From NCBI GenBank assembly GCA_030615175.1, contig JAUWZX010000001.1, positions 460,044 to 524,043 of the forward strand: a stretch of 64,000 bases of DNA, in the 5' to 3' direction. The stretch is from Candidatus Parvarchaeota archaeon (GTDB lineage Archaea > Nanobdellota > Nanobdellia > WJKC01). Below the pieces are notes generated by a model. That model saw only the letters and a list, made by a program, of their open reading frames with translations, did not search any database and had not been told where the DNA came from. The translations under genes and the position numbers were made by a program. Positions 5,108-59,020 of this stretch are shown here, piece after piece (within the stretch, counting starts at the first letter, position 1; each line of letters opens with the position of its first letter).

Positions 5108-5423
5108 TTAAATTATCTCCTTCAATCTTGAATCCTTTATGCCGTAAAAATTTTTTAACGCTTTTCCTATGGTTTCCTTGGAGTTCAATCCAGTTATTTT
5201 CCCTGTCATAAACTCCTCCGCAAGCAAGTTTTTTCTTAAGGTATTTAATTAATTTCTTTAACTCATTTGATTCCAATTCATTCCAGTCAAGTCCCCTAAT
5301 TATTGTTACTGGCTTACCCCATTTCCTTGAAGTCACTATAATGCTTAATTTCTGTGATTCCTTTACTATTTCTTCACAAGTGCATATTTCTTTTGGCAAC
5401 CCGCATTTTGGGCAAACTGTCAT
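5079..5423 (-). CDS. sui1: translation initiation factor aSUI1 (eIF1 homolog)
   Basis: N-terminal Zn knuckle CPKCGLPKEICTC plus SUI1 core LKKKLACGGVY...IELQGNHR. Confidence 0.85.
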   Translation of the reverse strand: MTVCPKCGLPKEICTCEEIVKESQKLSIIVTSRKWGKPVTIIRGLDWNELESNELKKLIKYLKKKLACGGVYDRENNWIELQGNHRKSVKKFLRHKGFKIEGDNLSEIKKTGKT

Positions 5424-44951: not shown

Positions 44952-44974
44952 CTTAACGCTCAAGAAATTTTGAG
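44952..44974 (+). promoter_or_regulatory. 23-nt operator-like element with internal palindrome, copy 1
   Basis: CTTAACGCTCAAGAAATTTTGAG, identical to 46074-46096. Contains CTCAA-N6-TTGAG. About 40 nt upstream of the gene at 45013. Confidence 0.5.
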
Positions 44975-45012: not shown

Positions 45013-45333
45013 ATGAAGTATTTTTTAGTATACAATAATTCTGAGAATAACCCTGTTATTGCTCAAATACGTTTGAATAAGGAACCAGTAATTGGTACAA
45101 GAATCTTATTCTATGATAAGGACCCAATGCTGGATTTTGAAGAAGAAGTGACAGGAGTAAAGAATGATTGCTTAAAAAACATAGACTACGCAAGCATTTA
45201 TAAGATAACCAAGAAATTAATTCACGATAATGGCATAATTGAAATAAGGAAAACAAAGAATTTCAGAGAAGAACCGAATTCAGAACTGGAAAGAAAGTTA
45301 ATAATGCTAAAGCCAAGCAACCACTCTAGTTAA
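45013..45333 (+). CDS. hypothetical protein (106 aa)
   Basis: ORF only. Confidence 0.45.
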   Translation: MKYFLVYNNSENNPVIAQIRLNKEPVIGTRILFYDKDPMLDFEEEVTGVKNDCLKNIDYASIYKITKKLIHDNGIIEIRKTKNFREEPNSELERKLIMLKPSNHSS

Positions 45334-46042
45334 GAATCCTTGTTAAATCAAATTTTTTGCCATCAAATTCCCTTGTAATCTCGAAAAAATTAATTCCACG
45401 CTTATCAATATACTTTAATGAATAAGGAATGTCAGCGAAGATATTCAATTTCTCTAAATTTTTAATATTAAACCATTTATTAAGCCTGTCAACAGTCTTC
45501 TTTTTCAACTCACCAGCAAATTCATTACACTTGAAGACATAGAATAAATGATGAGAATGAATATCATCCTTATTATACGTTCTCATTGAGTAAATAATTT
45601 TAAGCTTTAAATCCTTAGGCACGTAACCAGTTCTCTCAATAGTTTGCCTGACAGCGCTTTCCTTAATTCCTTCCCCAAAACGCACTCTGCCAACAACACT
45701 AGTAGCCCAAACCCCTTTAAACGGCTCTCTTTCAAGCCTTGATAACAAAATCTTACCCTCCTCCCTAATAATCACTCCGGCAATAACAAATGGCTGCTTA
45801 TGAACCCCCATGTCATTTAAGTCAACATAAATCGCTAATTCATTGCCAGTATTAGTTAATGAATACAAACCATCCTCATCCTTTTTTATAATACCAAGCT
45901 TAACTAATTTATTCAAATGATAGTTGAAGTGATTAGAACGAATATTACTATCCTGCAACTGTGAAAAACTAAGTCCAGACGCATACATTAATTTCTTAAA
46001 AATGTTCTTTCGAACATCATGATTTAATAAATTTAACTCCAT
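45326..46042 (-). CDS. wHTH + degenerate Nudix domain regulator, paralog 1
   Basis: N-terminal wHTH (LSFSQLQDSNIRSNHFNYHLNKLVKLGIIKK). C-terminal Nudix fold with box GRVRFGEGIKESAVRQTIERTGY, where the RE-x2-EE glutamates are mostly lost. Confidence 0.65.
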   Translation of the reverse strand: MELNLLNHDVRKNIFKKLMYASGLSFSQLQDSNIRSNHFNYHLNKLVKLGIIKKDEDGLYSLTNTGNELAIYVDLNDMGVHKQPFVIAGVIIREEGKILLSRLEREPFKGVWATSVVGRVRFGEGIKESAVRQTIERTGYVPKDLKLKIIYSMRTYNKDDIHSHHLFYVFKCNEFAGELKKKTVDRLNKWFNIKNLEKLNIFADIPYSLKYIDKRGINFFEITREFDGKKFDLTRILN

Positions 46043-46073
46043 GAAATAATATCCTTAATAAATCATTTATAAA

Positions 46074-46096
46074 CTTAACGCTCAAGAAATTTTGAG
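46074..46096 (+). promoter_or_regulatory. 23-nt operator-like element, copy 2
   Basis: Exact repeat of 44952-44974. Lies in the divergent intergenic region between wHTH-Nudix paralog 1 and the gene at 46135. Confidence 0.5.
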
Positions 46097-46134
46097 GAAA
46101 TCCATTTATACTGAAACTAATAATAGTTATAAAA

Positions 46135-46611
46135 ATGGAAAATGATGTTATTGCAGTGGAATTCTATGAAGATATGCTAGGGGACGGAATCAGGCATTCC
46201 ATACACATGGATGCGTTTAAAAAAGTTGTTTGCAAATGGTTGCTGGAGAATTACAGTGATGAATTTAAAGAAAAAGTAAATGAAGAAATGAACAAGATGA
46301 AATTAGAAGACATAACCGGGTACATCATTCATGGATATGTAAATATAATTGAAAACAAGAAAACAGAAAGTGATAGTAAATTAGAGGATATAATAAATGA
46401 TTTAATTAAGGATTTAAGGCAAAGTAGAATGGAAAGATTACTAGAACAAACTGCTGGAAAAGTAATACACAGAATGGTAGAGAAGTATGGTTTCAGGAGA
46501 AAAAGAGAATTGCGCTACGATCCTAAAGATCATTGGGAGATTAATAAATACGGTGAATTCAGTTGCAGTAAAATAGATAAGTATCTGAAAGAAATTAAGA
46601 TGAATGACTAA
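46135..46611 (+). CDS. hypothetical protein (158 aa)
   Basis: ORF only. Confidence 0.45.
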   Translation: MENDVIAVEFYEDMLGDGIRHSIHMDAFKKVVCKWLLENYSDEFKEKVNEEMNKMKLEDITGYIIHGYVNIIENKKTESDSKLEDIINDLIKDLRQSRMERLLEQTAGKVIHRMVEKYGFRRKRELRYDPKDHWEINKYGEFSCSKIDKYLKEIKMND

Positions 46612-46731
46612 CTCCTTTTTTTATTCTTAACAAAACATTTATATACTCTGCCACATATTTTTTACTAAAAAGAACTGAAAGAAACCAAAATTTGATTTTC
46701 TATCAGTAATAATAAAGAAGGTGAAAGTAAT

Positions 46732-47883
46732 ATGAAAGGATTTGAAGAATTAAACTTAAGTAAAGAAGTAATTCATGATCTTGAAAAGCATGGCATAGTA
46801 GAGCCAACAATCGTGCAATTAAAAACAATACCATTAATAATGGATAACAGGGATGTTTTAGTGCAGTCAGAAACTGGAAGCGGTAAAACAATTGGCTTCG
46901 CGATTCCAACAATAGAGAATTTAAAACCAGCTAATAAAGTGCGCGTACTAGTATTAACGCCGACAAGAGAGTTAGCCAGGCAAGTAGGCGAGGAATACAT
47001 TAAGTTCTCAAGAAGCAAAGGATTAAGGATAGCAATAGTCTACGGAGGAGTATCAATTAATAATCAATTATACAAGGTAAGGCAGGCGGATATAGTTATA
47101 GGAACGCCAGGCAGACTATTAGACTTATTAAACAGGAGAATGTTAGACTTAACGCATACTAAATACTTAGTAATAGATGAAGCGGAGCGATTACTGGATA
47201 TGGGATTCATAGATGATATAGATAGGATAATAAGTTACATGCCTGAAGAGAGGCAAAACATGTTATTCAGTGCAACAATAAATGACAGGGTGTTAAACCT
47301 GGCTGGCAAGTATTTAAACAATCCAGCAAAAGTGCTGCTGGAAAACGTGATAGAGAGCGTAATACTAAGTCAGTATTATTATAATGTTAAGGAATACAAT
47401 AAGTTATCCTTACTGGTTCACATACTAAGCAAGGTTAACAGGGAATTAACCCTTGTCTTCTGTAATACTAAACGAAAAACCAGGTTCGTAGCCCGCGTAC
47501 TGAAAAGTAATAACATAAAATCAGACTGCTTAAATGGTGATATGAGTCAGCATATGAGGGAGAAGGTTATGGAGGACTTCTCAATGCGCAGGATAAAAGT
47601 ATTAGTTGCAACAGATGTTGCGGCCAGGGGAATACACGTGGATGACATAACGCATGTAATAAATTATGACTTGCATGATGAATTAGAAACTTATACGCAC
47701 CGGATAGGCAGGACGGCAAGGAATGGCAGTAAAGGCACTGCAATAACACTATTATCAGATCGGGATTGGTATAAGATGGATAAGGTTATGAATAAATATG
47801 GGGATCAATTGGTTGAACAGCCATTAATTCGTTTTGACAGAATAAGGATGCCTCAACACAGGAGAAGTAATTTTAGAAGATAA
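46732..47883 (+). CDS. DEAD-box ATP-dependent RNA helicase (motif II variant DEAE)
   Basis: Q motif, SETGSGKT, PTRELA, VIDEAE, SAT and HRIGRTARNG. Confidence 0.9.
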   Translation: MKGFEELNLSKEVIHDLEKHGIVEPTIVQLKTIPLIMDNRDVLVQSETGSGKTIGFAIPTIENLKPANKVRVLVLTPTRELARQVGEEYIKFSRSKGLRIAIVYGGVSINNQLYKVRQADIVIGTPGRLLDLLNRRMLDLTHTKYLVIDEAERLLDMGFIDDIDRIISYMPEERQNMLFSATINDRVLNLAGKYLNNPAKVLLENVIESVILSQYYYNVKEYNKLSLLVHILSKVNRELTLVFCNTKRKTRFVARVLKSNNIKSDCLNGDMSQHMREKVMEDFSMRRIKVLVATDVAARGIHVDDITHVINYDLHDELETYTHRIGRTARNGSKGTAITLLSDRDWYKMDKVMNKYGDQLVEQPLIRFDRIRMPQHRRSNFRR

Positions 47884-47922
47884 ATTCTTCCAATCCGCAG
47901 TCATCTTAGTGCTGGGCGTTTA

Positions 47923-48180
47923 CTAATCGAATAATTCTGATATTAAGTCCTGTATTTTCATTAGTGAGGATTGCACTCCCTTAACGTCACTAATGGAATC
48001 CATGGCAACTTCACCAACTTGAGTTTCATTAGTTATCATTCCTGTCACTGCCTCGTAAACACCGCTTACCTGCTCGCCAAGGGAGTTTAATAAAGGGATT
48101 ATAACAAACAACCCAACAAATAATATAATAACACCAATCCAGACAGTTACTATTAATTTTATCATGCTCTTCTTATTCAC
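47923..48180 (-). CDS. 85-aa single-pass membrane protein, translationally coupled to the giant gene
   Basis: N-terminal TM helix LIVTVWIGVIILFVGLFVIIPLL. Its start overlaps the giant ORF stop by 4 nt. The C-terminus SSLMKIQDLISEL resembles the giant-protein tail SLELMIQDLSDIL. Confidence 0.65.
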   Translation of the reverse strand: MNKKSMIKLIVTVWIGVIILFVGLFVIIPLLNSLGEQVSGVYEAVTGMITNETQVGEVAMDSISDVKGVQSSLMKIQDLISELFD

Positions 48181-51100
48181 ATTAATCCCTCCATTAAATC
48201 ATATACTTTAACAAGTATGTCTGATAAGTCCTGAATCATTAATTCTAGACTATTATAAATGTAATTAACATTCGCTTCTGACGGCTGGTCCTTAACAGTA
48301 GTGATATATGTTTTCAAGTCATCAGCCCTGTTAATTAAGTCATGGTAACTATCATATATAACCTGCCACTCTGCCAGTTTACCAGTTTCTCCCACATCAT
48401 TATAGTAACTAATAACGCCCAGTAAGTCCAGTAGACTATTATTAAGTTCTTTATTAAATGAGGTAAGCCTGGCATCTAACTCCTCTAACTGCATTTTATA
48501 AGCCATGGTCGGGTTATCATCCTCTGTTATGAATTTTGAAATGCACTTATTGTTAATGCATACAGGTATTGCCTTGCCCAGAGTGCATTCAGTAATCACT
48601 GAAGGACAGATAGGGTTAAGTTCAGCCAGGCTCTTAGTGATTGCACCGCAACCAGAGTAACACATGCAGTCATCATCAGTAACGCATCCTAACTCAACTT
48701 CTTCATCTATAACGTAAGTAATATTGCTTTCATCAACTTCCTCATCAATGCACATGTTATCTGAGCAATTCATGCCAGCGGGGCAGCCAGCATCTAAACA
48801 GCAGTTAAATGAAGTTTCGTAATCCTGTACTACGCCGTCACCGCAAGTTGCTTCATCAACGCATGAAATCTCTAAAGGTGAAATTAAATCACAAGTTCCA
48901 ACCGTGCAGGTACAGTCCAGACAGCATGCTTCAGATGTTTCACTTGGACTGCAGATGCCGTCACCGCAGTACTCTTCTGCACAAATAAAGTCCTCTGGCT
49001 TAATGAAGAATAATATATCCCATCCAGTGATTGTCTGTGATAAGGCAGTGTAAGGTAGGCAAACGCCGGTCTCGCAGCCAGCATCTAAACAGCAGGTTTC
49101 AGGTGTTTCCCCTGCTGAAACAAGCCCGTCACCGCAGAAAGCATTATTCATTGGAACGCAGCCCTTAACATTAGCATAAGAAGAGGTTAAATTACAAACT
49201 TTGTTACCGCAGTCACAATCATTTGGTGCTGTAACGCAGTTTTCTCCAACACTTGGCGAGCAAATGCCATTAGTAGCGCATACCTGAGGCGAGCAGTCAT
49301 AAGAGCATGAAGTGCATTCTCCAGGACCGCATTTCTTGTCACCGCAGCATGATTCAGCTCCTCCAGGGCACTCGAATACTGGCACGCAGCCCATTTTATC
49401 AGCTCTTACATTATCAGGGTCGCATTCAATGCTGCTAGGACAGAAGCAGGCAGGTGAGTTAAGGCAATTATCTCCTAAGCCGGGACTGCATATCTTTGAT
49501 GAATTAACAAATCCCTCTACCGTGATGCAGCCCATTAAGTCAGCGCTTGGAGCTACTGCGCCGTCAGAGTGAACACCGCAATTAAATCCTATAGGGCAAA
49601 CACAGTCTATTGGGTTTGCGTAACAGTTTTCTCCATAACCGCATCTGTAATCAATAATGTTTTCATAAATAACGCAGCCCTGCAAGTCAGTTTTTACGCT
49701 GTCAGGATTGCAGTATGAATCTTTAGGGCAGCGAGCGCAGTCAAGTGAATTCATGCAATTCTCAGTTCCATCGCACACGCCGTCATTACAGACTTCACCG
49801 GAAGGGCAGTCATCTATTTTTAATTCAATTTTGTAAACACAGCCCTTGAAATCAGAATCCTTGCTTCCAGGATTGCATTCAGCTCCTGATGGGCACGCGC
49901 AGTCAATTGACTTGCAGTTCTCTCCGAAGAAAGTGTCGCAGTAATCATCCCCTTCTTCAAAATCGTAGTCAAGCATGCATCCCATGAAGTCCGCGCTTGA
50001 GTCTTTTGGATTGCATATGAATCCTTCAGGGCATTCGCAGTCGCTTGAACTTAAGCAGTTCTCGTTAGGGTCGCAAACATTTTTCCCTCCAACGCATTTA
50101 ATATCCTGGCACCACCCAGTGTTTTGTTCTGTTGTATTCATCATTACTCCTGAAATATCATACATTGTGGTTAATATCATGTTCTCGCACCAATTCCTTC
50201 CAGCGCTTTCACAGTTTTCTTTAGTGTAACAATTCCAGTATTGTTCATAACCGCATGTCGGGCAGGTATAGTCTGTGCACCATGTCTCACACCAGTTACC
50301 ACTCACATTAAGGCATTCTGATTCAGTGAAGCAGTTCCACGGCATGCTTGAACTGCAGGTCGGGCAGGTATAGTCGCTGCACCAGGAGCCCCATTTATCA
50401 CTGCACCAGTTACCTTCATTATTAACGCACTCGCTTTGAGTATAGCAGTTCCATGGCGTGCTTGAACTGCATGTTGGGCAGGTATAATCTGTACACCATC
50501 CGCCCCACATATCAGAGCACCAGTCGCCATTTATTCCTTCACAGTCTTTTTCACTGGCGCAGAGCCATACCTGTTCATTGCTGCACACAGAGCACGCGTA
50601 CTTATCACACCAGGAGCCCCACTCGTCAGAGCACCAGTTAGCTTCCGCTCTCTCGCACTCGCTTTGAGTATTGCAGTTCCATGGCAGGTTTATTGAGCAC
50701 TTAGGGCACTCATAGTAACTGCACCAGTCACCGCACCAGTAACCGCCTGCTGATGTGCACTCAGAAGCTGTTGAACAGAAATCAAGATAATCCTTACTGC
50801 ATGATATACATTTTTCTGACTGGCACCAACCGTTCTTTTCATCACCGCACCAGTTTGCTCCAGCACCCTTGCATTCAAGTTTTGTTTTACAATTCCATGA
50901 CTGGTATTCTAAGCACGTTAAACAAGGAGTTTCCTGACAATAATTATCACACCAGTAATTATTATTTACTATGCAGTCATCTTCAGTATAGCAATTCCAT
51001 GGCATGCTTGAACTGCATGTTGGGCATTCATAGTCGCTGCACCATCCGCCGTAATGACTTTCACACCATTTAGCTCCTACATTAGTGCATTCCTGTTTTG

Positions 51101-54100
51101 AGAAGCAGTTCCACGGCTCGCTTGAACTGCATGTTGGGCAGGTGTAGTCGCTGCACCATGTGCCGCACCAGCTTCCTTCATTATTAATGCATTCGCTTTT
51201 TGTATAGCAATTCCATGGAGTATCCTTTGAGCATGTAGGGCAGGTATAGTCACTGCACCAATTGCCTCCCCAATTATCAATACACCACTTACCGCCAACA
51301 CCTTCACATTCATCTTTTGAATAACAATTCCACGGCTCTGATTTCTTGCACGTTGGGCATTCATATATTGATTTCTGGCACCAGCCGCTCGTGAATGATG
51401 TTGCATTAGCACTAATGCTTTCACACCAGTTACCGCCAGCGCTTTCACATTCATTCTTTGTATAGCAGTTCCATGAACTTGCTGCTGAGCAAATGCCAGC
51501 GCATATGTAGTCACCATAATCATTTATTTTACAGAAAGAGTCACCCCAGCACGCGCATTCAGGGTCAAAGCAGTCAACTAACCCGTCATTATTATCATCT
51601 ACCCTGTTACTGCAAACTTCTGTTACTGCTCCGCAAGACCATGACTGGCACCAACTACTCCATGCGTCAGTGCAATAATAACCGCCAGCGCTCTTGCAGG
51701 ACTCTTTTGTATTACAATTCCATAATTCATCTGAACTGCAGGTTGGGCATTCATAATTGCTGCACCACGTGTCGCACCAGTTTACTCCAGCATTACTGCA
51801 GTCCTTTTCAATGTAGCAGTTCCACGGCATGCTTGAACTGCAGGTCGGGCATTCGTAGGAATCACACCACGTTCCGCACCAGTAACCATTATTAGAAGTG
51901 CATTCTGTTTCTGTCTTGCAGTCCCATAAGTTTTCAGAACTGCATTCGCTTGCACAGTAATAAAACCCTTCAGCATCCTTTTTGCATGACTTGTCGTTAG
52001 GGCACGCGCAGTCCTCATCATTACAGTCTATTTTAGTATCCTTATCATTATCTAATCCGTCACCGCATATTTCGTATAGTTTTGTTTCACCGCAAGGAGA
52101 GATTTGACACCAAGTGTAGCCGTATTCATTAGTGCACCAGTAACCTCCAATGTCAGGGTTAGTGCATTCTGTTTCTATATTGCAATTAAATAAATCATCT
52201 TTACTGCATTGAGGGCATTGGTTTGTCTGGCACCATGAGTATTCTTCATAGTATTTATCCGTACACCAGTATCCTTCTGCTCCACTGCATTCTGTTTCAG
52301 AGTAGCAGTTCCATATGTTTGTTGAACTGCAGTCAGAACAGTATTGTGATAGAGTGCAGTAAGGACTGCAAGTTGAGCATACATTAGTGCACCATGTTCT
52401 ACTTACTCCTTCGCACTCGCTTTGAGTGTAGCAGCTCCAGTAATTGCCTTCAGTGCATTCTGAACAAGCATTTGTCTGGCACCAGGCGTAATCTGCACCA
52501 CCGCACCAGTAACCATTATTAGAAGTGCATTCTGTTTCAGAGTAACAGTTCCATATGTTTGTTGAACTGCAGTCGTAACACCATTGAGGGTCTGTGCAGT
52601 AAGGCTCGCATGTTAGGCAGATGTTTGTGCACCAATCCCCTCCTGCCCCTTCACATGATGTCTGGTCTTTGCATTTCCAGTAATTATTCGAGTCACATGT
52701 TGCGCAAGTATCTGTCTGGCACCATCCTGGACTCCATTCATCAGCACACCAGTGACCGCCTGCATTCGTGCACGTTGTCTGCGTGTAACAGTTCCATACA
52801 TCAGTGGAACTGCATTGTGGGCATGAGCCTATGGTCGTGCACCAGGGATCGCATGTTAGGCAGATGTTTGTGCACCAATCCCCTCCTGCTGTTGTGCATG
52901 TTGTTTGGTCTTTGCATTTCCAGTAATTATCCGAGTCGCATACTGTGCATTCGTTTGATTGGCACCACCCTGTTCCGCAACTTGAATCATAATCATAAAG
53001 GCACCAGTAGCCATTATTAGAATTGCATTCTGATTCAGTGTAGCAGTAACTTACTTGACTGCCTGTACTGCAACTGCAGTCATAATTAGCGCACCAGCCG
53101 GTTCCACCGCAACTGCCAGTGCACCAGTAATAACCTGTTCCAAGACCTTCACAATCTGTTTGATTATAGCAATACCAGTAATTCGTTGTTGAACATTCAT
53201 ATGCTGAAGTGCACGTGACACTGCAGCAGTTATAAGAATCCGTTGCTGTTAAGTAAGTTCCAGAGCAAGTCTCTTCTGGTGAGCACATGTCTCCTCCCTG
53301 CTCTGAGCATGTTTTAGGGCAATCCGTGCTGCTTGATGCATAAACATCGCCTGAGCAGCAGTATCCTGAGTACTTATCAATGTTTTGGCATTTGCACCCG
53401 CTTGAAGGTATTACTCCTTCAGTGCAGTTAGACAGTTCCCCTGTTTCAATGCATTGACCCATGCTGCATGTTTTTCCGCTTGCAGTGCAGTTCTCTTTTT
53501 CCCATGAACTCCATACTGAGTGGCTGCATCCTCCATTAGCGCATGTGTACAAGTGTCTTTCCTGAACAACTTTGTCATTATAGCAGGATGGTTCTCCTAT
53601 GTATACTTCGCCGCCGCATTCAGCGTCAGTAGTGCATGAATTAATAGTGAATGTTAGGTTCTGCGTGCTTACTTGACTGCTCGTGTCTGTTGCCTCGACA
53701 GTTATTGTATGCGTTCCAGTAATGTAAGTTGAGACAGTTGTATTGTAATCGCAGCTCGTGCCTGAACAGGTTATTGTCACGCCTGATTGGAATGCCCAGT
53801 CCCCGTACCACCTGGCACTGCTGATTCCAATGTCATCAGTTATTGTAGCAGTTAAATTCATTTCCAGTCCAGCGTACTGGGTTGATGGCGTAAGGCTTGC
53901 CGTAACTGAAGGATAACTGTCAAGAATGCATGCTTTTAAGATAGAGTCATAAACATAATCTGTTGCGCAGTCTGCACTGGAATTGGCGTAGTAGCACTCG
54001 TGAGTTGTTAAGTCGCAGTACCTCACTGCATCTGCTCCTGAGCTTGAATAATTCATGCTGTACATGTTATTGCACATTAAGTCAGCATTGCATCCTGACA

Positions 54101-54440
54101 GGCAGTCAGCGCTTCGGCAGTGGCAGCCCCAGCCATAAGTTGCATCTGTATATTTTGCGTAAGGGCAGAAATAACCTTCACTATCACAATAATGATGATA
54201 ATAAGTGCTGCATTGAGTTTGAGAGCAGTCTGAAGCACAAGTATCACAATTACTTGCTGTAATACAAGTATTACTGTCAGTGCACCAGTGTGCTCCAGCG
54301 GTTTCACAATCAGTTTGTGTTGTACAAAAGTCAAGTGTTGCATTAGAACAAGAAGTATTATCTAATGCATCCGCGAAGACGGTGTTAATAATGGCAAAAG
54401 TAGTAATTATAAATAATAACAGAATCTTCTCCTTGTCCAT
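48177..54440 (-). CDS. giant secreted cysteine-repeat protein (2087 aa)
   Basis: Uninterrupted 6.26-kb ORF. Signal peptide ILLLFIITTFAIINTVFA-DA. One Ig/PKD-like segment. About two dozen modules of roughly 40 aa of the form C-P-T-C-S-x4-W-N-C-Y-T-x2-E-C-x4-G-x-W-C-x-D-x-W-x2-W-C-x2-Y-x-C. A second type of Cys module follows, and the C-terminal ~120 aa are Cys-free and helical. Confidence 0.85.
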   Translation of the reverse strand: MDKEKILLLFIITTFAIINTVFADALDNTSCSNATLDFCTTQTDCETAGAHWCTDSNTCITASNCDTCASDCSQTQCSTYYHHYCDSEGYFCPYAKYTDATYGWGCHCRSADCLSGCNADLMCNNMYSMNYSSSGADAVRYCDLTTHECYYANSSADCATDYVYDSILKACILDSYPSVTASLTPSTQYAGLEMNLTATITDDIGISSARWYGDWAFQSGVTITCSGTSCDYNTTVSTYITGTHTITVEATDTSSQVSTQNLTFTINSCTTDAECGGEVYIGEPSCYNDKVVQERHLYTCANGGCSHSVWSSWEKENCTASGKTCSMGQCIETGELSNCTEGVIPSSGCKCQNIDKYSGYCCSGDVYASSSTDCPKTCSEQGGDMCSPEETCSGTYLTATDSYNCCSVTCTSAYECSTTNYWYCYNQTDCEGLGTGYYWCTGSCGGTGWCANYDCSCSTGSQVSYCYTESECNSNNGYWCLYDYDSSCGTGWCQSNECTVCDSDNYWKCKDQTTCTTAGGDWCTNICLTCDPWCTTIGSCPQCSSTDVWNCYTQTTCTNAGGHWCADEWSPGWCQTDTCATCDSNNYWKCKDQTSCEGAGGDWCTNICLTCEPYCTDPQWCYDCSSTNIWNCYSETECTSNNGYWCGGADYAWCQTNACSECTEGNYWSCYTQSECEGVSRTWCTNVCSTCSPYCTLSQYCSDCSSTNIWNCYSETECSGAEGYWCTDKYYEEYSWCQTNQCPQCSKDDLFNCNIETECTNPDIGGYWCTNEYGYTWCQISPCGETKLYEICGDGLDNDKDTKIDCNDEDCACPNDKSCKKDAEGFYYCASECSSENLWDCKTETECTSNNGYWCGTWCDSYECPTCSSSMPWNCYIEKDCSNAGVNWCDTWCSNYECPTCSSDELWNCNTKESCKSAGGYYCTDAWSSWCQSWSCGAVTEVCSNRVDDNNDGLVDCFDPECACWGDSFCKINDYGDYICAGICSAASSWNCYTKNECESAGGNWCESISANATSFTSGWCQKSIYECPTCKKSEPWNCYSKDECEGVGGKWCIDNWGGNWCSDYTCPTCSKDTPWNCYTKSECINNEGSWCGTWCSDYTCPTCSSSEPWNCFSKQECTNVGAKWCESHYGGWCSDYECPTCSSSMPWNCYTEDDCIVNNNYWCDNYCQETPCLTCLEYQSWNCKTKLECKGAGANWCGDEKNGWCQSEKCISCSKDYLDFCSTASECTSAGGYWCGDWCSYYECPKCSINLPWNCNTQSECERAEANWCSDEWGSWCDKYACSVCSNEQVWLCASEKDCEGINGDWCSDMWGGWCTDYTCPTCSSSTPWNCYTQSECVNNEGNWCSDKWGSWCSDYTCPTCSSSMPWNCFTESECLNVSGNWCETWCTDYTCPTCGYEQYWNCYTKENCESAGRNWCENMILTTMYDISGVMMNTTEQNTGWCQDIKCVGGKNVCDPNENCLSSSDCECPEGFICNPKDSSADFMGCMLDYDFEEGDDYCDTFFGENCKSIDCACPSGAECNPGSKDSDFKGCVYKIELKIDDCPSGEVCNDGVCDGTENCMNSLDCARCPKDSYCNPDSVKTDLQGCVIYENIIDYRCGYGENCYANPIDCVCPIGFNCGVHSDGAVAPSADLMGCITVEGFVNSSKICSPGLGDNCLNSPACFCPSSIECDPDNVRADKMGCVPVFECPGGAESCCGDKKCGPGECTSCSYDCSPQVCATNGICSPSVGENCVTAPNDCDCGNKVCNLTSSYANVKGCVPMNNAFCGDGLVSAGETPETCCLDAGCETGVCLPYTALSQTITGWDILFFIKPEDFICAEEYCGDGICSPSETSEACCLDCTCTVGTCDLISPLEISCVDEATCGDGVVQDYETSFNCCLDAGCPAGMNCSDNMCIDEEVDESNITYVIDEEVELGCVTDDDCMCYSGCGAITKSLAELNPICPSVITECTLGKAIPVCINNKCISKFITEDDNPTMAYKMQLEELDARLTSFNKELNNSLLDLLGVISYYNDVGETGKLAEWQVIYDSYHDLINRADDLKTYITTVKDQPSEANVNYIYNSLELMIQDLSDILVKVYDLMEGLM

Positions 54441-54506
54441 TAAGAAATTATGAAGGAATTGCCTGAATAAAAAGGTTTTTAATTTTAATAATCGTCTGAT
54501 TCTTTA

Positions 54507-54809
54507 ATGAGTTTTATTAATAGTTTAATATTCATAGCAGTAGGATTTATTGGCTTATTACTTGTCAAGGCTGCAGTCAAGGCAGTGTCAATAATATTCA
54601 TCATATTATTAGGAATTGGAGTGCTGGGCTTGATTGGTTATGACATAACTGACTTCCTGACAGGAACAGTGACTAATATTACTCGGGCTGAATTAGTGAA
54701 TAAGTCGCTTGAGCTTAAGGAATGCGTTGTACAGGCCTGTAACTGCAGTCAGGGCATAGTGATTGACTGCATAACGCAGACAATAATCCCCATTAACCTG
54801 ACTACTTGA
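54507..54809 (+). CDS. small membrane protein (100 aa) with C-terminal Cys motif
   Basis: Two TM helices, then ECVVQACNCSQGIVIDC. Divergent from the giant gene. Confidence 0.5.
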   Translation: MSFINSLIFIAVGFIGLLLVKAAVKAVSIIFIILLGIGVLGLIGYDITDFLTGTVTNITRAELVNKSLELKECVVQACNCSQGIVIDCITQTIIPINLTT

Positions 54810-54819
54810 GTAATCTTTT

Positions 54820-55686
54820 CTAATGAAGAATTAGGCACTTAAGGTAGTCCTTGCCTGTTCTTTGTTTTAGTAATTTTTTCCACGCGTTCTCCAGAGTCTT
54901 AGGCTTGAATTCAGGAGGTTCATTACCATTTAACCGCGTGTAAGTTGGCGAGTAAAGAGAGATTTGCAGTATATTAACTTTTTCAGGCCGTTGTATCACC
55001 ACGTCAAATAAGTCCTCTAAATCCAGTAAGTCTTTCTCGTCCTGTATTAAGTCAATTAAGTAAATTGAATAATCATCAAGCACGTCCTCCATGTACTCTA
55101 AGTTCTCCAACTGCTTGTACCAAATCTTGCCTGGCAGCCCGGTATTTTCCTCAAAATTCTTTTCACTTATCCCTTTAATGCACATCTGGAATTGCACGTT
55201 TGACTGATTGATTAATTCTTCCTTATGAAGCTTTCTCGTTAAGTTAGTGTCAATGTTTAATCCGTATTCATGAGGGAATTCACGTATTATTTTGTACAGG
55301 AATTGCGGGAAAAGTGTTGGTTCTCCTCCACTAATCCTTAATGCATTAACATCTTCATTCTCATTTAAGTAAGTCACTACTTCATTGAGTACCTGATTAA
55401 CTGGTTTATTAATCCCCCTGCTAGCATCCTTGTTCTTGTCATCAACATAGCAGAACCAGCAGTTCATATTGCATTTATTAACCTGGCTTGTTAGAACCTT
55501 GTTCGTTTTATAAGGGCTTAAGCCAAGTTTTCGCGATGCCACGAATGGAACCCTGCCAAATTCTTTCTTCTTCTTATTAATATTCCACATGTAATAGTAA
55601 ATCCTGTAAGTATCATTTATTATATCACCGCTTTTCTTAATATCCTCTTTCTGTTTTCCTTCATTAAAGTTTGTTAAATAAACCAA
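54820..55686 (-). CDS. radical SAM enzyme, paralog 2 (288 aa)
   Basis: CNMNCWFCYVD (C-x3-C-x2-C) and ISGGEPTLFP (GGE SAM motif). Aligns with the 377-aa paralog along its length. Confidence 0.75.
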   Translation of the reverse strand: MVYLTNFNEGKQKEDIKKSGDIINDTYRIYYYMWNINKKKKEFGRVPFVASRKLGLSPYKTNKVLTSQVNKCNMNCWFCYVDDKNKDASRGINKPVNQVLNEVVTYLNENEDVNALRISGGEPTLFPQFLYKIIREFPHEYGLNIDTNLTRKLHKEELINQSNVQFQMCIKGISEKNFEENTGLPGKIWYKQLENLEYMEDVLDDYSIYLIDLIQDEKDLLDLEDLFDVVIQRPEKVNILQISLYSPTYTRLNGNEPPEFKPKTLENAWKKLLKQRTGKDYLKCLILH

Positions 55687-55754
55687 TTCAATGATTTTTA
55701 TCCTATCTTTCTTTTAATACATTTATTTAGTTTAAAATAATGATTCCAAGCCAG

Positions 55755-56471
55755 TCATCTAATAATCTTGGTTAAATTAAATTTCTTGCCATTGAACTCT
55801 CTTTCAAGCTCTAAAAAAGTAATTCCACGCTTATCAATATACTTCAAAGTGTAAGGAATGTCAGTGAAAATATTAAGCTTCTTAACATCTTTAATATTAA
55901 CCCATTTGTTAAGCCTGTCAGGAGTTTTCTTTTTCAGTTTGCCGGAAAAATCATTACACCTTAAAACATAAAACATGTGATGAGAATGAATATTATTCTC
56001 TTTATTTGTTCTTATTGAGTAAATAATTTTAAGCTTTAAATCCTTAGGCGCGTAACCAGTTCTCTCCATAGTTTGTCTGACAGCACTTTCCCTTACTCCC
56101 TCCCCGAAATGCATTCTACCCACCACGCTTATAGCCCACACGCCCTTAAATGGTTCCCTCCCAAGCTTTGATAATAAAATCTTATCTTCTTTTCTAATAA
56201 CCACTCCTACAATCACGAAAGGCTGCTTATGTACTCCCATCTCATTTAAGTCAACATAAATCGCCAGTTCTTTGCCAAGATTGCTTAATGAATACAAGCC
56301 ATCCTCATCCTTTTTTATAATACCAAGCTTAACTAATTTATTCAAATGATAATTAAAACGATTAGAACGAATATTACTATCCTGTAATTGTGAAAAACTA
56401 AGCTTTGACTTATACATTAATTTCTTAAAAATTTTCTTACGGACATCATGATTTAATAAATTTAACTCCAT
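55755..56471 (-). CDS. wHTH + degenerate Nudix domain regulator, paralog 2
   Basis: 238 aa, collinear with 45326..46042. Long identical nucleotide runs near the 5' end of the gene. Confidence 0.65.
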   Translation of the reverse strand: MELNLLNHDVRKKIFKKLMYKSKLSFSQLQDSNIRSNRFNYHLNKLVKLGIIKKDEDGLYSLSNLGKELAIYVDLNEMGVHKQPFVIVGVVIRKEDKILLSKLGREPFKGVWAISVVGRMHFGEGVRESAVRQTMERTGYAPKDLKLKIIYSIRTNKENNIHSHHMFYVLRCNDFSGKLKKKTPDRLNKWVNIKDVKKLNIFTDIPYTLKYIDKRGITFLELEREFNGKKFNLTKIIR

Positions 56472-56536
56472 GTAAATTCTTTTGGATGAAGTTACTAATA
56501 AATTTAACCATTTTTTTAAAAAAAAATAATAATGAT

Positions 56537-56893
56537 TTAGATAATGAATTCTAGCATAGTAACATCATCATTAACTGTTACTTGATCTCCATATATGCTT
56601 CTTAATTTTTTAACTAGGTTTTCTAAACCATCACCCATGTATTCCTCTGGCACGTTTTTTAACAACGTTTTTTGTTTGTCAACCAATTTAAGTGTTAAAA
56701 CTGTCAGCGCTGTTTCAGGATTCTTACCAACCGTGATGTCAACAAGGCTTCCAATTTTGTAATCCTGGTTGTCAAAATACTTTGTTCCATACCTTAATTC
56801 ATACCACGCGCTCTTAACTTTAATTTCTTCTTTTATGTAATCACTCCATTTCTGTTCGTCTTCTCTTTCCCATAAATTAAATTTTGGTGTCAT
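56537..56893 (-). CDS. small ASCH/PUA-like domain protein (118 aa) - tentative
   Basis: Size and pattern (...LKLVDKQKTLLKNVPEEYMGDGLENLVKKLRSIYG...VTMLEF) resemble ASCH-fold proteins. Judged by eye only. Confidence 0.35.
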   Translation of the reverse strand: MTPKFNLWEREDEQKWSDYIKEEIKVKSAWYELRYGTKYFDNQDYKIGSLVDITVGKNPETALTVLTLKLVDKQKTLLKNVPEEYMGDGLENLVKKLRSIYGDQVTVNDDVTMLEFII

Positions 56894-56988
56894 AAAATTC
56901 CTTTAATTTAATGATTAATAAATAGGTTTTCTCAAAAGAATTTGACTCAAAAAAATTTAAAGAATAAATAAAAGAAAAAAGTTTTTTT

Positions 56989-58122
56989 TTAAGCGTTTGC
57001 TAAAATGTCTTCAATAATGCTTGGTCTTGATATTTCCTTATAATGCTTTCCGAACTCTTCAATGCATAATCCGTCCATTACTTGCTCGCTTCTGGCATAG
57101 TAATCATTCCATTCACTTACTGCTTCATCTATTTTATCACCATATCTTTCTTTCACTGGACCGTAAGGACCAATCTTTAATATATGCATGAAAGGAATTA
57201 TCTTCCTGCCATAATCCTGCGCTAATTCATTCATAAAGCCTTCAAGTGTTTCAGGATTTGGATTAATAATGTATGCATAAGTCCTGATTCCATTACTTAA
57301 TAATTTCTTAAAAGTGTATAATTGCTCTTCAAGCAATTCCCTTCCCTGCTCCGCGTTTCTTCCTATATTACGAGCCAGGTTCTCCGGGTCGCTTCCCTTA
57401 AAGCAGTAAAGAACGTTGAAATTCTTATACTTGCTTACTTGTTCAAATAAGTCTTCTTGCATTTCCTTGTTCTTAATCCATCTGTTCCATGCATGACCTG
57501 TTGTGCCGTTACAGTCAGATTGTACTGATACTTTCTTGCTTAAACCATATTCTTCCAATAATTGCAGTACTTCAAGCCATTGTTCAGGCGCTAAAGTTGG
57601 TTCTCCTCCACTAGGCCTGAATTGATTCAATGCTACTCCTTCATCATTTTTTCTTTCACGGAATTTAATGAATGAATCAATTATTTCACGCATACTGAAG
57701 TATTCAGCCCCATGGTCTGCTCTGCCATTATTATTGAACCTGTCTACGAAACAGAACTTGCAGTTAATATTGCATCCTTTTAATTGGTAGATGAAAACGT
57801 TAGTGTATTCTTCTATTATTTCTCTCGGCACGTCCTGCAATCTTGCAGTGTTGTACGCACCTGTCGATTCTATTGCCCAGAAATCCATGTCAAAAGGTAA
57901 TACTTGATTATTCTTTGTTGCAAAGTACTCGTCAAGCTGGTAGTCCTTCAAGTTTGTTTTAACTCTGAAGAAGTCATTAATGCTTCCCTTGACATTGCCT
58001 TTAGTTTTATCCAAGTCCTTCTGCTGCTCGCTGCCTGCAAAGTTAGTTAATAAGTACTTTCTAACACCGTCTTCAATCTTCATTACTCTATGCCTTAAAA
58101 GTGTTGGTAGTGTCCTCGTCAT
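56989..58122 (-). CDS. radical SAM enzyme, paralog 1 (377 aa)
   Basis: GCNINCKFCFVD (C-x3-C-x2-C) and PSGGEPTLAP. N-terminal extension of about 100 aa. No C-terminal SPASM-type Cys cluster. Confidence 0.75.
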   Translation of the reverse strand: MTRTLPTLLRHRVMKIEDGVRKYLLTNFAGSEQQKDLDKTKGNVKGSINDFFRVKTNLKDYQLDEYFATKNNQVLPFDMDFWAIESTGAYNTARLQDVPREIIEEYTNVFIYQLKGCNINCKFCFVDRFNNNGRADHGAEYFSMREIIDSFIKFRERKNDEGVALNQFRPSGGEPTLAPEQWLEVLQLLEEYGLSKKVSVQSDCNGTTGHAWNRWIKNKEMQEDLFEQVSKYKNFNVLYCFKGSDPENLARNIGRNAEQGRELLEEQLYTFKKLLSNGIRTYAYIINPNPETLEGFMNELAQDYGRKIIPFMHILKIGPYGPVKERYGDKIDEAVSEWNDYYARSEQVMDGLCIEEFGKHYKEISRPSIIEDILANA

Positions 58123-58216: not shown

Positions 58217-59020
58217 TTAAATTAATCCAAGCTCTTTTGCAAAGTCAAAGGCTTGTTTGCGCTCCCTGCAAGGAGGACACCAGTCATTGTATGGAATGCC
58301 TTGCTCCGCGTGAGTTGGTTTAGGATTCCAGCAAGAGTAACTTGCATTAATCGCGTTAATATAGTCTTCTGGCGCGCAGTCAATAGCGAGCGCTAAAGCT
58401 TCATTCTTAGATAAGCCGAGCCAAAGGTAAGGCATGTAGCAATGAACTATATTACCCTTAACTTGAACGTCATACAATTGGTTAAGTAATTTATAATTCT
58501 TAACATCCCCATCTCCAAAGCTCTCATCAGTAGTTACGTTGCCGTTGCTTAAGATTGTGAATACAGGGTCATCATCTTCTCTGTACCTATCATCATTCAG
58601 GCATCGGGCTAGTTTATAGCATTCATCCATCATACTAATATTGCGCAGAGTGTACACTGACTTAGTTGATGCTTGCTTAGCGGATTCCTTATTCTTGAAA
58701 GTTTCTTTAATATACTTTGACGGGATAGGCATCACGTACTCTATTAATTTAAGCACTGAGTCAGGATATACTTCTGAAGCAATACTTAATACTTTTGTAA
58801 TAGCTGTTTTTTCCTGTTCATAATTGCCCTGCCCTCTGTTAAAGAATACTGGCTGTATTTTATCAGCGCCGAAGAATTTCATTACTGGTATTACTCCTAC
58901 AGAATCAAGACCTCCTGAAATGCAGTGCACTACGCTTGCATTCTTTAGCATTCTTCTCGCGTGCCTGATTCTGCCTTCAAGTCCTTCCTTATTCTTGAAA
59001 TATTCATGCATTAAAACCAT
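58217..59020 (-). CDS. QueC-like PP-loop ATPase (divergent 7-cyano-7-deazaguanine synthase family)
   Basis: PP-loop HCISGGLDS, FFNRGQGNYEQE (compare the QueC DYGQRH-x2-E), TLRN, and a C-terminal SCW...CPPCRERKQAF Zn-Cys cluster. Confidence 0.65.
   Translation of the reverse strand: MVLMHEYFKNKEGLEGRIRHARRMLKNASVVHCISGGLDSVGVIPVMKFFGADKIQPVFFNRGQGNYEQEKTAITKVLSIASEVYPDSVLKLIEYVMPIPSKYIKETFKNKESAKQASTKSVYTLRNISMMDECYKLARCLNDDRYREDDDPVFTILSNGNVTTDESFGDGDVKNYKLLNQLYDVQVKGNIVHCYMPYLWLGLSKNEALALAIDCAPEDYINAINASYSCWNPKPTHAEQGIPYNDWCPPCRERKQAFDFAKELGLI

Follow-up and report, generated by a model that had tools for sequence, protein, structure and literature searches.

A stretch of 64,000 nucleotides from a Candidatus Parvarchaeota archaeon (GenBank assembly GCA_030615175.1, contig JAUWZX010000001.1, positions 460,044 to 524,043), hereafter the window, carries two open reading frames (ORFs) for a 238-aa protein with an N-terminal winged helix-turn-helix (wHTH) and a C-terminal Nudix domain. 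The two genes are referred to as copy A and copy B. The genome (G000) is about 1.015 Mb in size with 36% GC, and is 87% complete. Both ORFs start with ATG and lie on the minus strand in the same orientation, with a gap of 9,712 nt between them and 10,429 nt from start to start. An initial annotation of the window, made from the sequence without database searches, had noticed the two collinear ORFs and had offered two readings of them: direct repeats that could mediate deletion or amplification of the giant-gene segment between them, or dedicated regulators of the flanking modules. The analysis described here argues against the former and for the latter, and A and B are old paralogs that most likely act as ligand-sensing one-component transcription factors on a shared 16-bp palindrome.

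Sequence, age and fold of the two copies

A and B could be aligned without gaps, with 596 of 717 nucleotides (83.1%) and 190 of 239 amino acid positions, the stop counted (79.5%), being identical. Identity at codon positions 1, 2 and 3 was 88, 92 and 70%, respectively. At the protein level the wHTH was 90.7% and the Nudix domain 74.2% identical, and one H-to-R change in the winged helix adjoins the recognition helix. The long identical runs reported initially were confirmed, the longest being 53 nt (gene positions 121-173) and another 29 nt at the 5' end of the gene. The homology ended at the ORF limits, and both the upstream and the downstream flanks were unrelated; A and B are paralogous genes and not repeats reaching into the non-coding flanks. 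Duplication of a larger segment was considered and rejected, because an all-against-all BLASTP of the ORFs of 27-64 kb matched, apart from A and B, only two distantly related radical-SAM proteins (28% identity).

Comparison of the two copies by the Nei-Gojobori method gave a pS of 0.445, a dS of 0.68, a dN of 0.106 and an omega of 0.16. Judged from these values of dS and omega, the duplication is old and both copies are under purifying selection. The initial annotation had itself named low synonymous-site identity as the sign of an old duplication speaking against a recombination role, and this is what was found. Close relatives were rare. A large protein collection yielded only two, both of the A type and 95% and 92% identical, and the related contigs (L017, L018 and L019) were all of the copy-A type with the copy-A synteny kept (160-aa ORF divergent, 106-aa ORF convergent). 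A scan of metagenomes for B-type or hybrid genes returned only the known A-type contig and one distant Nudix gene, and a scan of genome contigs returned none. At the 121 sites that differ between A and B, the two A-type relatives matched A at 105 and 99. Their B-like sites were scattered and formed no blocks, and neither relative is therefore an A/B chimera.

The nearest more distant ortholog, 54% identical, was found in G011, a genome that belongs to the same class but to another family. A small tree had the form ((A, L017, L019), B) with the G011 ortholog beside it, and the branches to A and B were about equal in length. This places the duplication after the split from the G011 lineage and before the A-type strains diverged. 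The copy A locus is probably the ancestral one, because the association with a DEAD-box helicase is seen again in G011, with a 59% identical helicase two genes from the wHTH-Nudix ortholog.

The N-terminal winged helix and C-terminal Nudix fold predicted initially were borne out in both copies by Pfam and by an AlphaFold model. The NUDIX domain was matched at E values of 3e-10 and 4e-9 (40.5 and 37.0 bits against a cut-off of 21.1), and the N-terminal part matched DUF7347/HTH_20, an ArsR-like wHTH (DUF7347 with 33.2 and 33.6 bits against a cut-off of 27.6). The AlphaFold model, based on an alignment of 82 sequences, had a predicted local distance difference test score (pLDDT) of 93.8 and a predicted template modelling score (pTM) of 0.81. 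The winged helix spans residues 9-62, with helices at 9-19 and 26-29, the recognition helix at 36-48 and wing strands at 52-54 and 60-62. A linker helix connects it to the Nudix fold (residues ~85-238), which closes in a beta-hairpin.

The Nudix box is reduced to RQT(I/M)ER in both copies, as had been read from the sequence at the outset. The full box is G-x5-E-x7-R-Q-T-I/M-E-R-T-G-Y, in which RE..EE has become RQ..ER with the loss of two of the three glutamates, and the signature GX5EX7REUXEEXGU of active Nudix hydrolases is absent from A and B. Mutagenesis of MutT has identified the first and last glutamates of the box as the most critical ones. The Nudix signature is needed for the activity of the known Nudix enzymes, and in NrtR proteins with a perturbed signature catalysis was barely detectable, while restoration of the signature raised the rate 600-fold (PMC2330246). 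The acidic residues remaining in A and B are the box glutamate E136 and the upstream E124. RQTIERTGY is common to A, B, the L017 and L019 relatives and the G011 ortholog; the glutamates were therefore lost before the duplication, and the altered box has been maintained since.

Among solved structures, the family profile came closest to 3fk9 (E value 1e-23) and MTH1 (~1e-11), and AraR reached only 4e-9. Foldseek gave target-normalised template modelling scores of ~0.8 for MTH1 and 3fk9, with a probability of 1.00 to MTH1, and ADP-ribose pyrophosphatases scored far below MutT/MTH1 as matches. When copy A was aligned to zebrafish MTH1 with HMMER, its F202-A-D204 (F-T-D in copy B) fell opposite the segment W-A-D-D, which carries the base-contacting Trp and Asp of MTH1. 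The Nudix domain of A and B most likely binds a nucleotide-like (purine-nucleotide-like) ligand without hydrolysing it; binding without hydrolysis is proposed because two of the three box glutamates have been lost. The comparison with NrtR-type sensing made in the initial annotation thus holds for the degenerate box and the reversed domain order, but not for the analogy to ADP-ribose, as the Nudix domain is nearest to the MutT/MTH1 nucleoside triphosphate pyrophosphatases.

A and B belong to a sizeable family. An exhaustive HMMER search with a cut-off of E <= 1e-3 returned 1,248 cluster representatives, 354 of which reached E <= 1e-10. The majority were 220-245 aa long and aligned end to end, and the wHTH-Nudix architecture is therefore common to the family. 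The named sources were Woesearchaeota and Diapherotrites (DPANN archaea) and some Patescibacteria/candidate phyla radiation (CPR) bacteria. The only annotations found were "NUDIX domain-containing protein", "hypothetical protein", "MutT" (also MutT/8-oxo-dGTPase) and "YjhB/predicted transcriptional regulator", and full-text literature searches returned no paper on a family with an N-terminal wHTH and a Nudix domain or on DUF7347. By these searches the wHTH-Nudix family is uncharacterised and found mostly in DPANN archaea. Among 143 full-length members the R-E..E-E box was found in 57 and R-E..E-K in 17, and R-Q..E-R was found only in the A/B clade. Recurring neighbours, in a small and anecdotal sample, were NDK, cytidylate kinase, UDG and stand-alone Nudix genes. 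In CPR bacteria (Levybacteria, WWE3, Patescibacteria) a 230-aa wHTH-Nudix architecture was annotated in P0178, P0202, P0214 and P0230 (loci L049 and L050).

A palindrome at the promoters of the family

A 16-bp palindrome, CTCAA-N6-TTGAG, was identified as the predicted operator. It occupies positions -54 to -39 from the ATG and abuts the region of the transcription factor B (TFB) recognition element (BRE) and TATA box. Three sites, O1, O2 and O3, were located in the window (Table 1). A repeat search detected a 44-nt repeat at 44952 and 46074, the first 23 nt of which contain the palindrome CTCAAGAAATTTTGAG; this 23-nt element has exactly two copies in the 1.0-Mb genome, both beside copy A. The sequence TTTGAGRAAAYNNATTTA occurs three times genome-wide, all at O1, O2 and O3. 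O2 has a TATA-like box on either side, 7 nt away from the arm, and is kept in L017 and L019. The related strain L019 has the exact O3 variant GTCAAATTCTTTTGAG at its 106-aa promoter. The distance from the TATA-like boxes at O1 and O2 to the respective ATG is ~31 nt and suggests that the transcripts are leaderless.

A 28-nt core consensus was made from the two A-side sites, and O3 tied as its best non-self match genome-wide; this core was chosen after O3 was known, and with the full 44-nt consensus O3 fell outside the top 12, so the ranking is the weaker for it. The palindrome at <=1 mismatch has a background of 35 sites per 1.015 Mb. When palindrome, TATA spacing and ORF geometry were combined in a genome-wide scan of G000, only these promoters and the locus of a third paralog were returned, with no further convincing site. 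The search for a shared operator motif upstream of nearby genes, which the initial annotation had proposed, thus led to CTCAA-N6-TTGAG at four promoters and at distant family members, and the conserved palindrome at -53/-54 of four adjacent promoters supports the alternative of dedicated local regulators. The predicted regulon is local and would consist of copy A, the 158-aa ORF, the 106-aa ORF and a unit running from the 118-aa ORF to copy B, possibly with the 288-aa radical-SAM gene.

The third paralog of this genome (G000:C3:27980-28564; L016 9867-10589, minus strand) is 24% identical and has a box, RLVRTKTS, without glutamates. Its neighbours are RadA and a divergently oriented, stand-alone Nudix gene of 162 aa (L016 10653-11141), and a near-perfect palindrome, CTCAAATTAATTCGAG (L016 10595-10610), is present in the 63-nt divergent intergenic region.

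The strongest support for the predicted operator was obtained at independent loci, those of family members that share only 27-36% identity with copy A and lie in unrelated contexts. Palindromes with <=1 mismatch were found at -52 to -54 for P0157, P0160, P0180 and the operon of P0172, and at P0158 a palindrome was found with two mismatches. At all five loci a TATA-like box follows 7 nt further on. Four matches within a 3-nt positional window at seven archaeal-type loci are, by this count, far beyond chance, AT-rich intergenic DNA allowed for. The pattern expected of autoregulated factors, in which a palindrome is conserved at the same position before the regulator's own gene, was thus present in the A group and at five further loci.

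In the vicinity of the G011 ortholog, exact CTCAA-N6-TTGAG was not found at <=1 mismatch. The relaxed pattern TTTTGAG-N7-ATTTA had only two copies in G011, both of which share the identical module TTTTGAGCAACAATATTTA. One (G011:C13:17831-17849) lies 18 nt past the stop codon of the ortholog, ahead of an MTS methyltransferase, a 132-aa ORF and the DEAD-box helicase. The other (G011:C31:65203-65230; L048 ~5204-5231) contains a perfect CTCAAACTTTTTTGAG and lies ahead of a dCMP-deaminase-like gene and another MTS methyltransferase.

Table 1. Genes, predicted operators and other features of the window, with the palindromes at independent family loci (ATG distances in nt)
Feature	Position	Strand	Remarks
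Copy A, wHTH and degenerate MutT/MTH1-like Nudix, 238 aa	45326-46042	minus	ORF list, Pfam, AlphaFold model
Copy B, paralog of copy A, 238 aa	55755-56471	minus	ORF list, Pfam, alignment with copy A
53-nt identical run of A and B	45870-45922 and 56302-56354		Encodes end of recognition helix and wing
O1, palindrome identical to O2	44959-44974		54 nt upstream of 106-aa ORF; 7 nt from TATA-like ATTTAAG
O2, CTCAAGAAATTTTGAG	46081-46096		Centre of 92-nt divergent intergenic region of copy A and 158-aa ORF; 54 nt from both ATGs
O3, GTCAAATTCTTTTGAG as read on the minus strand	56931-56946	minus	53 nt upstream of 118-aa ORF; 7 nt from ATTTATTA
106-aa ORF, no family	45013-45333	plus	Convergent with copy A; predicted target; synteny kept in L017, L019
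158-aa ORF, no family	46135-46611	plus	Divergent from copy A; predicted target; synteny kept in L017, L019
DEAD-box helicase	46732-47883	plus	Own TATA-like box
Radical-SAM protein, 288 aa	54820-55686	minus	Directly downstream of copy B; possibly co-transcribed with B
118-aa ORFan	56537-56893	minus	First gene of predicted O3 unit (118-aa ORF, copy B, perhaps radical SAM 288 aa)
Variable island holding A and B	36353-62321		Comparison with same-genus genome G001
P0157, palindrome CTCAAAACTTTTTGAG	L029, -52 from ATG		
P0160, palindrome CTCAAAAAGTTTTGAC	L030, -53 from ATG		
P0180, palindrome CTCAAATCTTTTTGAG	L052, -53 from ATG		
P0172, palindrome CTCAATTTTTTTTGAG	L031, -54 from ATG of first gene		Two-gene operon
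P0158, palindrome ATCAAGAACTCTTGAC	L051, -54 from ATG		2 mismatches, inner palindrome perfect

Predicted function and alternative explanations

In the proposed mechanism the N-terminal winged helix would bind DNA and the C-terminal MutT/MTH1-like Nudix domain would be the sensor. We infer that the protein, probably as a dimer, sits on the palindrome directly upstream of the BRE/TATA of apparently leaderless genes, and that a ligand in the disabled Nudix pocket alters its affinity for DNA. A site just upstream of the BRE would be compatible with recruitment of TFB or with occlusion. Both paralogs are predicted to recognise the same sites, because their DNA-binding domains are 91% identical, and would then cross-regulate. 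The sensors may respond differently, the Nudix domains being only 74% identical, or mixed dimers may form. A ligand class is suggested by the MutT/MTH1-like fold together with the nucleotide-metabolism neighbours, including the dCMP-deaminase-like target in G011. A bolder version of the proposal, which we regard as possible but rather doubtful, is that of a "reverse NrtR" family, in which a MutT/MTH1 pocket senses the nucleotide pool and CTCAA-N6-TTGAG is the family-wide operator. Catalytic members would then be trigger enzymes and degenerate ones pure sensors, and A and B would be two sensors, arisen by duplication, with the same DNA specificity but diverged pockets that integrate two signals, possibly as heterodimers, on the shared promoters of the island.

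Several observations weigh against a regulatory role for the pair. The palindrome was absent at two archaeal-type loci (L026 and L032) and at the two CPR loci, and the motif definition was partly refined after the sites had been seen. The -54 position of copy B itself (56510-56525, minus strand) is T9A7 and not a palindrome, and control of copy B through O3 assumes the predicted co-transcription with the 118-aa ORF. The three predicted targets are without recognisable function, so no physiological logic can be checked. Finally, about 40% of the sampled family members keep RE..EE, and the family may therefore be enzymatic or bifunctional. As to the promoter of copy B, the T9A7 is followed by a 7-nt spacer and the TATA-like ATTTATTAG, as if this promoter were derived from that of the family by loss of the operator.

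The last of these points leads to an explanation in which the proteins are DNA-tethered or bifunctional trigger enzymes, whose Nudix domain still hydrolyses a nucleotide (for example a damaged nucleoside triphosphate or an RNA or DNA cap) and whose wHTH serves for targeting, regulation being secondary or absent. Besides the many members with a canonical GX5EX7REUXEEXGU, the public annotations as MutT/8-oxo-dGTPase, the frequent nucleotide-metabolism neighbours (NDK, cytidylate kinase, UDG, stand-alone Nudix) and the retention of E136 and E124 in A and B are in favour of it. For A and B themselves it is nevertheless unlikely, since two of the three box glutamates have changed to Q and R in A, B and the G011 ortholog, a state that is conserved, and since NrtR proteins with perturbed signatures were barely active (PMC2330246). 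A constant spacing between a palindrome and the TATA box of the gene that encodes the protein is, moreover, the pattern of an autoregulated factor. The palindrome could in turn belong to another factor, or be a promoter or terminator module, and accompany these genes only by chance, with the wHTH-Nudix protein binding elsewhere or to RNA. Both G011 sites have T-runs just past the upstream stop codon and are possible terminators, and the island has further repeated junction elements. This explanation was judged very unlikely, because the arms, the TATA spacing and the ATG distance are kept at members only 27-36% identical in unrelated contexts, a geometry that only linkage to the family gene explains. 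The other junction repeats of the island, moreover, differ in sequence, and an assignment of the palindrome to the box C/D-like ones was rejected for that reason.

The explanation given least credence is the one proposed initially, in which A and B are direct-repeat substrates and homologous recombination between them deletes or amplifies the 9.7-kb giant-gene block. The two copies do share their orientation at a distance of 9.7 kb, the genome has a RadA gene, and the whole region is variable within the genus. The identical run of 53 nt also exceeds the length expected for evenly spread differences (permutation p ~0.005), which leaves room for a short gene-conversion tract. Recombination frequency, however, drops steeply as sequences diverge, and A and B are 17% divergent at the nucleotide level, with the high dS and the purifying selection described above. 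Near-identical repeats with long perfect tracts were not found, the identity being 83% and the longest run 53 nt, and the homology stops at the ORF boundaries. The related contigs are of the A type with the copy-A synteny, and the variable island of ~26 kb far exceeds the bracketed block and does not have A and B as its borders. The 53-nt run spans the recognition helix and wing, the region of strongest constraint, and could be either a short conversion tract or the result of such constraint. Judged from the synonymous divergence and the unrelated flanks, A and B most likely do not act as recombination substrates that set the limits of the giant-gene segment.

The reading of A and B as ligand-sensing transcription factors finds its closest parallel in NrtR, a group of regulators of NAD metabolism in which the wHTH is C-terminal and preceded by a Nudix-like domain at the N-terminus (PMC2330246). 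As here, the Nudix signature of NrtR is often degenerate with loss of catalysis, some members have kept it intact, and palindromic operators are found near the regulator's own gene and neighbouring genes. In NrtR it is ADP-ribose that brings about release from the operator. In contrast to NrtR, the wHTH of A and B is N-terminal and the Nudix domain C-terminal, the Nudix domain is nearest to MutT/MTH1 and not to ADP-ribose pyrophosphatases, and the wHTH matches DUF7347/HTH_20, with no match to NrtR. The hosts are DPANN archaea, the predicted operator abuts the BRE/TATA and there is no NAD-metabolism context. As judged from the domain order and the Nudix subtype, both of which fail to fit NrtR, the family is not NrtR. 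AraR of Bacteroides thetaiotaomicron (BT0354; PDB 5bs6) likewise combines a Nudix-fold sensor with a wHTH in local gene control, and demonstrates that ADP-ribose is not the only ligand available to Nudix sensors (PMC4666351). It is, however, a bacterial NrtR-family member with the Nudix domain ahead of the wHTH and a sugar as effector, and the likeness is confined to the Nudix fold.

MutT, MTH1 (NUDT1) and 3fk9 of Bacillus halodurans gave the best sequence and fold matches to residues ~85-238, including the C-terminal beta-hairpin, and the base-contact segment aligns at its aromatic and Asp positions. They differ from A and B in being stand-alone enzymes with an intact RE..EE and no DNA-binding domain, whereas A and B have RQ..ER and a wHTH. 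With respect to promoter geometry, there are archaeal wHTH regulators that bind at or just upstream of the BRE/TATA. The proposed dimer on a palindrome abutting the basal promoter, with the regulator gene itself carrying the site, would resemble these, although no regulator of this type is known to use a Nudix sensor domain.

Transcriptional regulation in DPANN archaea is very poorly understood, and the majority of the regulators in these organisms lack an annotation. For the present family, the generic label "NUDIX domain-containing protein" can be replaced by a testable hypothesis with a predicted operator, a promoter geometry and a local regulon. If correct, it would extend the idea of Nudix domains as sensors from the bacterial NrtR and AraR to a second, independently assembled architecture. 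The bracketing repeats are ordinary old paralogs and most likely not a device for genome rearrangement, and the family-wide operator is the part worth following.

Neighbouring genes and the variable island

No credible match for the 106-, 158- and 118-aa proteins was obtained in Pfam (E values up to 10), NCBIfam or PADLOC. The 158-aa ORF showed no homology to the 132-aa ORF at the analogous position in G011. For the 118-aa ORF only the protein itself was found in a collection of 5.8 billion proteins, and its single-sequence AlphaFold model (pLDDT 42) was unusable.

Copy B lies within a same-strand cluster of a QueC-like PP-loop protein, two radical-SAM proteins and the 118-aa ORFan. The genes listed initially as bracketed by A and B (the 158-aa ORF, the DEAD-box helicase, the giant gene with its partner and a 100-aa membrane protein) did not include the 288-aa radical-SAM gene adjoining copy B, and that list was therefore incomplete. 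The best matches of both radical-SAM proteins were prokaryotic viperin models, below threshold and confined to the N-terminal CxxxCxxC region. A reading of the cluster as a defence system was rejected, because the viperin and QueC matches in NCBIfam and PADLOC were weak, N-terminal only and far under the cut-offs. The two radical-SAM proteins, at 54820-55686 and 56989-58122, are 28% identical over the core, and the QueC-like gene at 58217-59020 adjoins the latter.

A genome of the same family (G002) shared only the DEAD-box helicase, and its synteny was uninformative. A genome of the same genus, in which the region lies on one contig (G001), had 70-77% nucleotide identity to the window up to ~36.35 kb and again from ~62.3 kb. 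Between these flanks lie ~26 kb in the window and ~7 kb of unrelated small genes in G001 (G001:C5, L047). The island exceeds the A/B pair, which therefore does not delimit the variable unit. The small genes of G001 are toxin-antitoxin-like (RelE/ParE-like, AbrB-like) and HNH-like, and a hypervariable island is thus seen between the same conserved flanks in both genomes.

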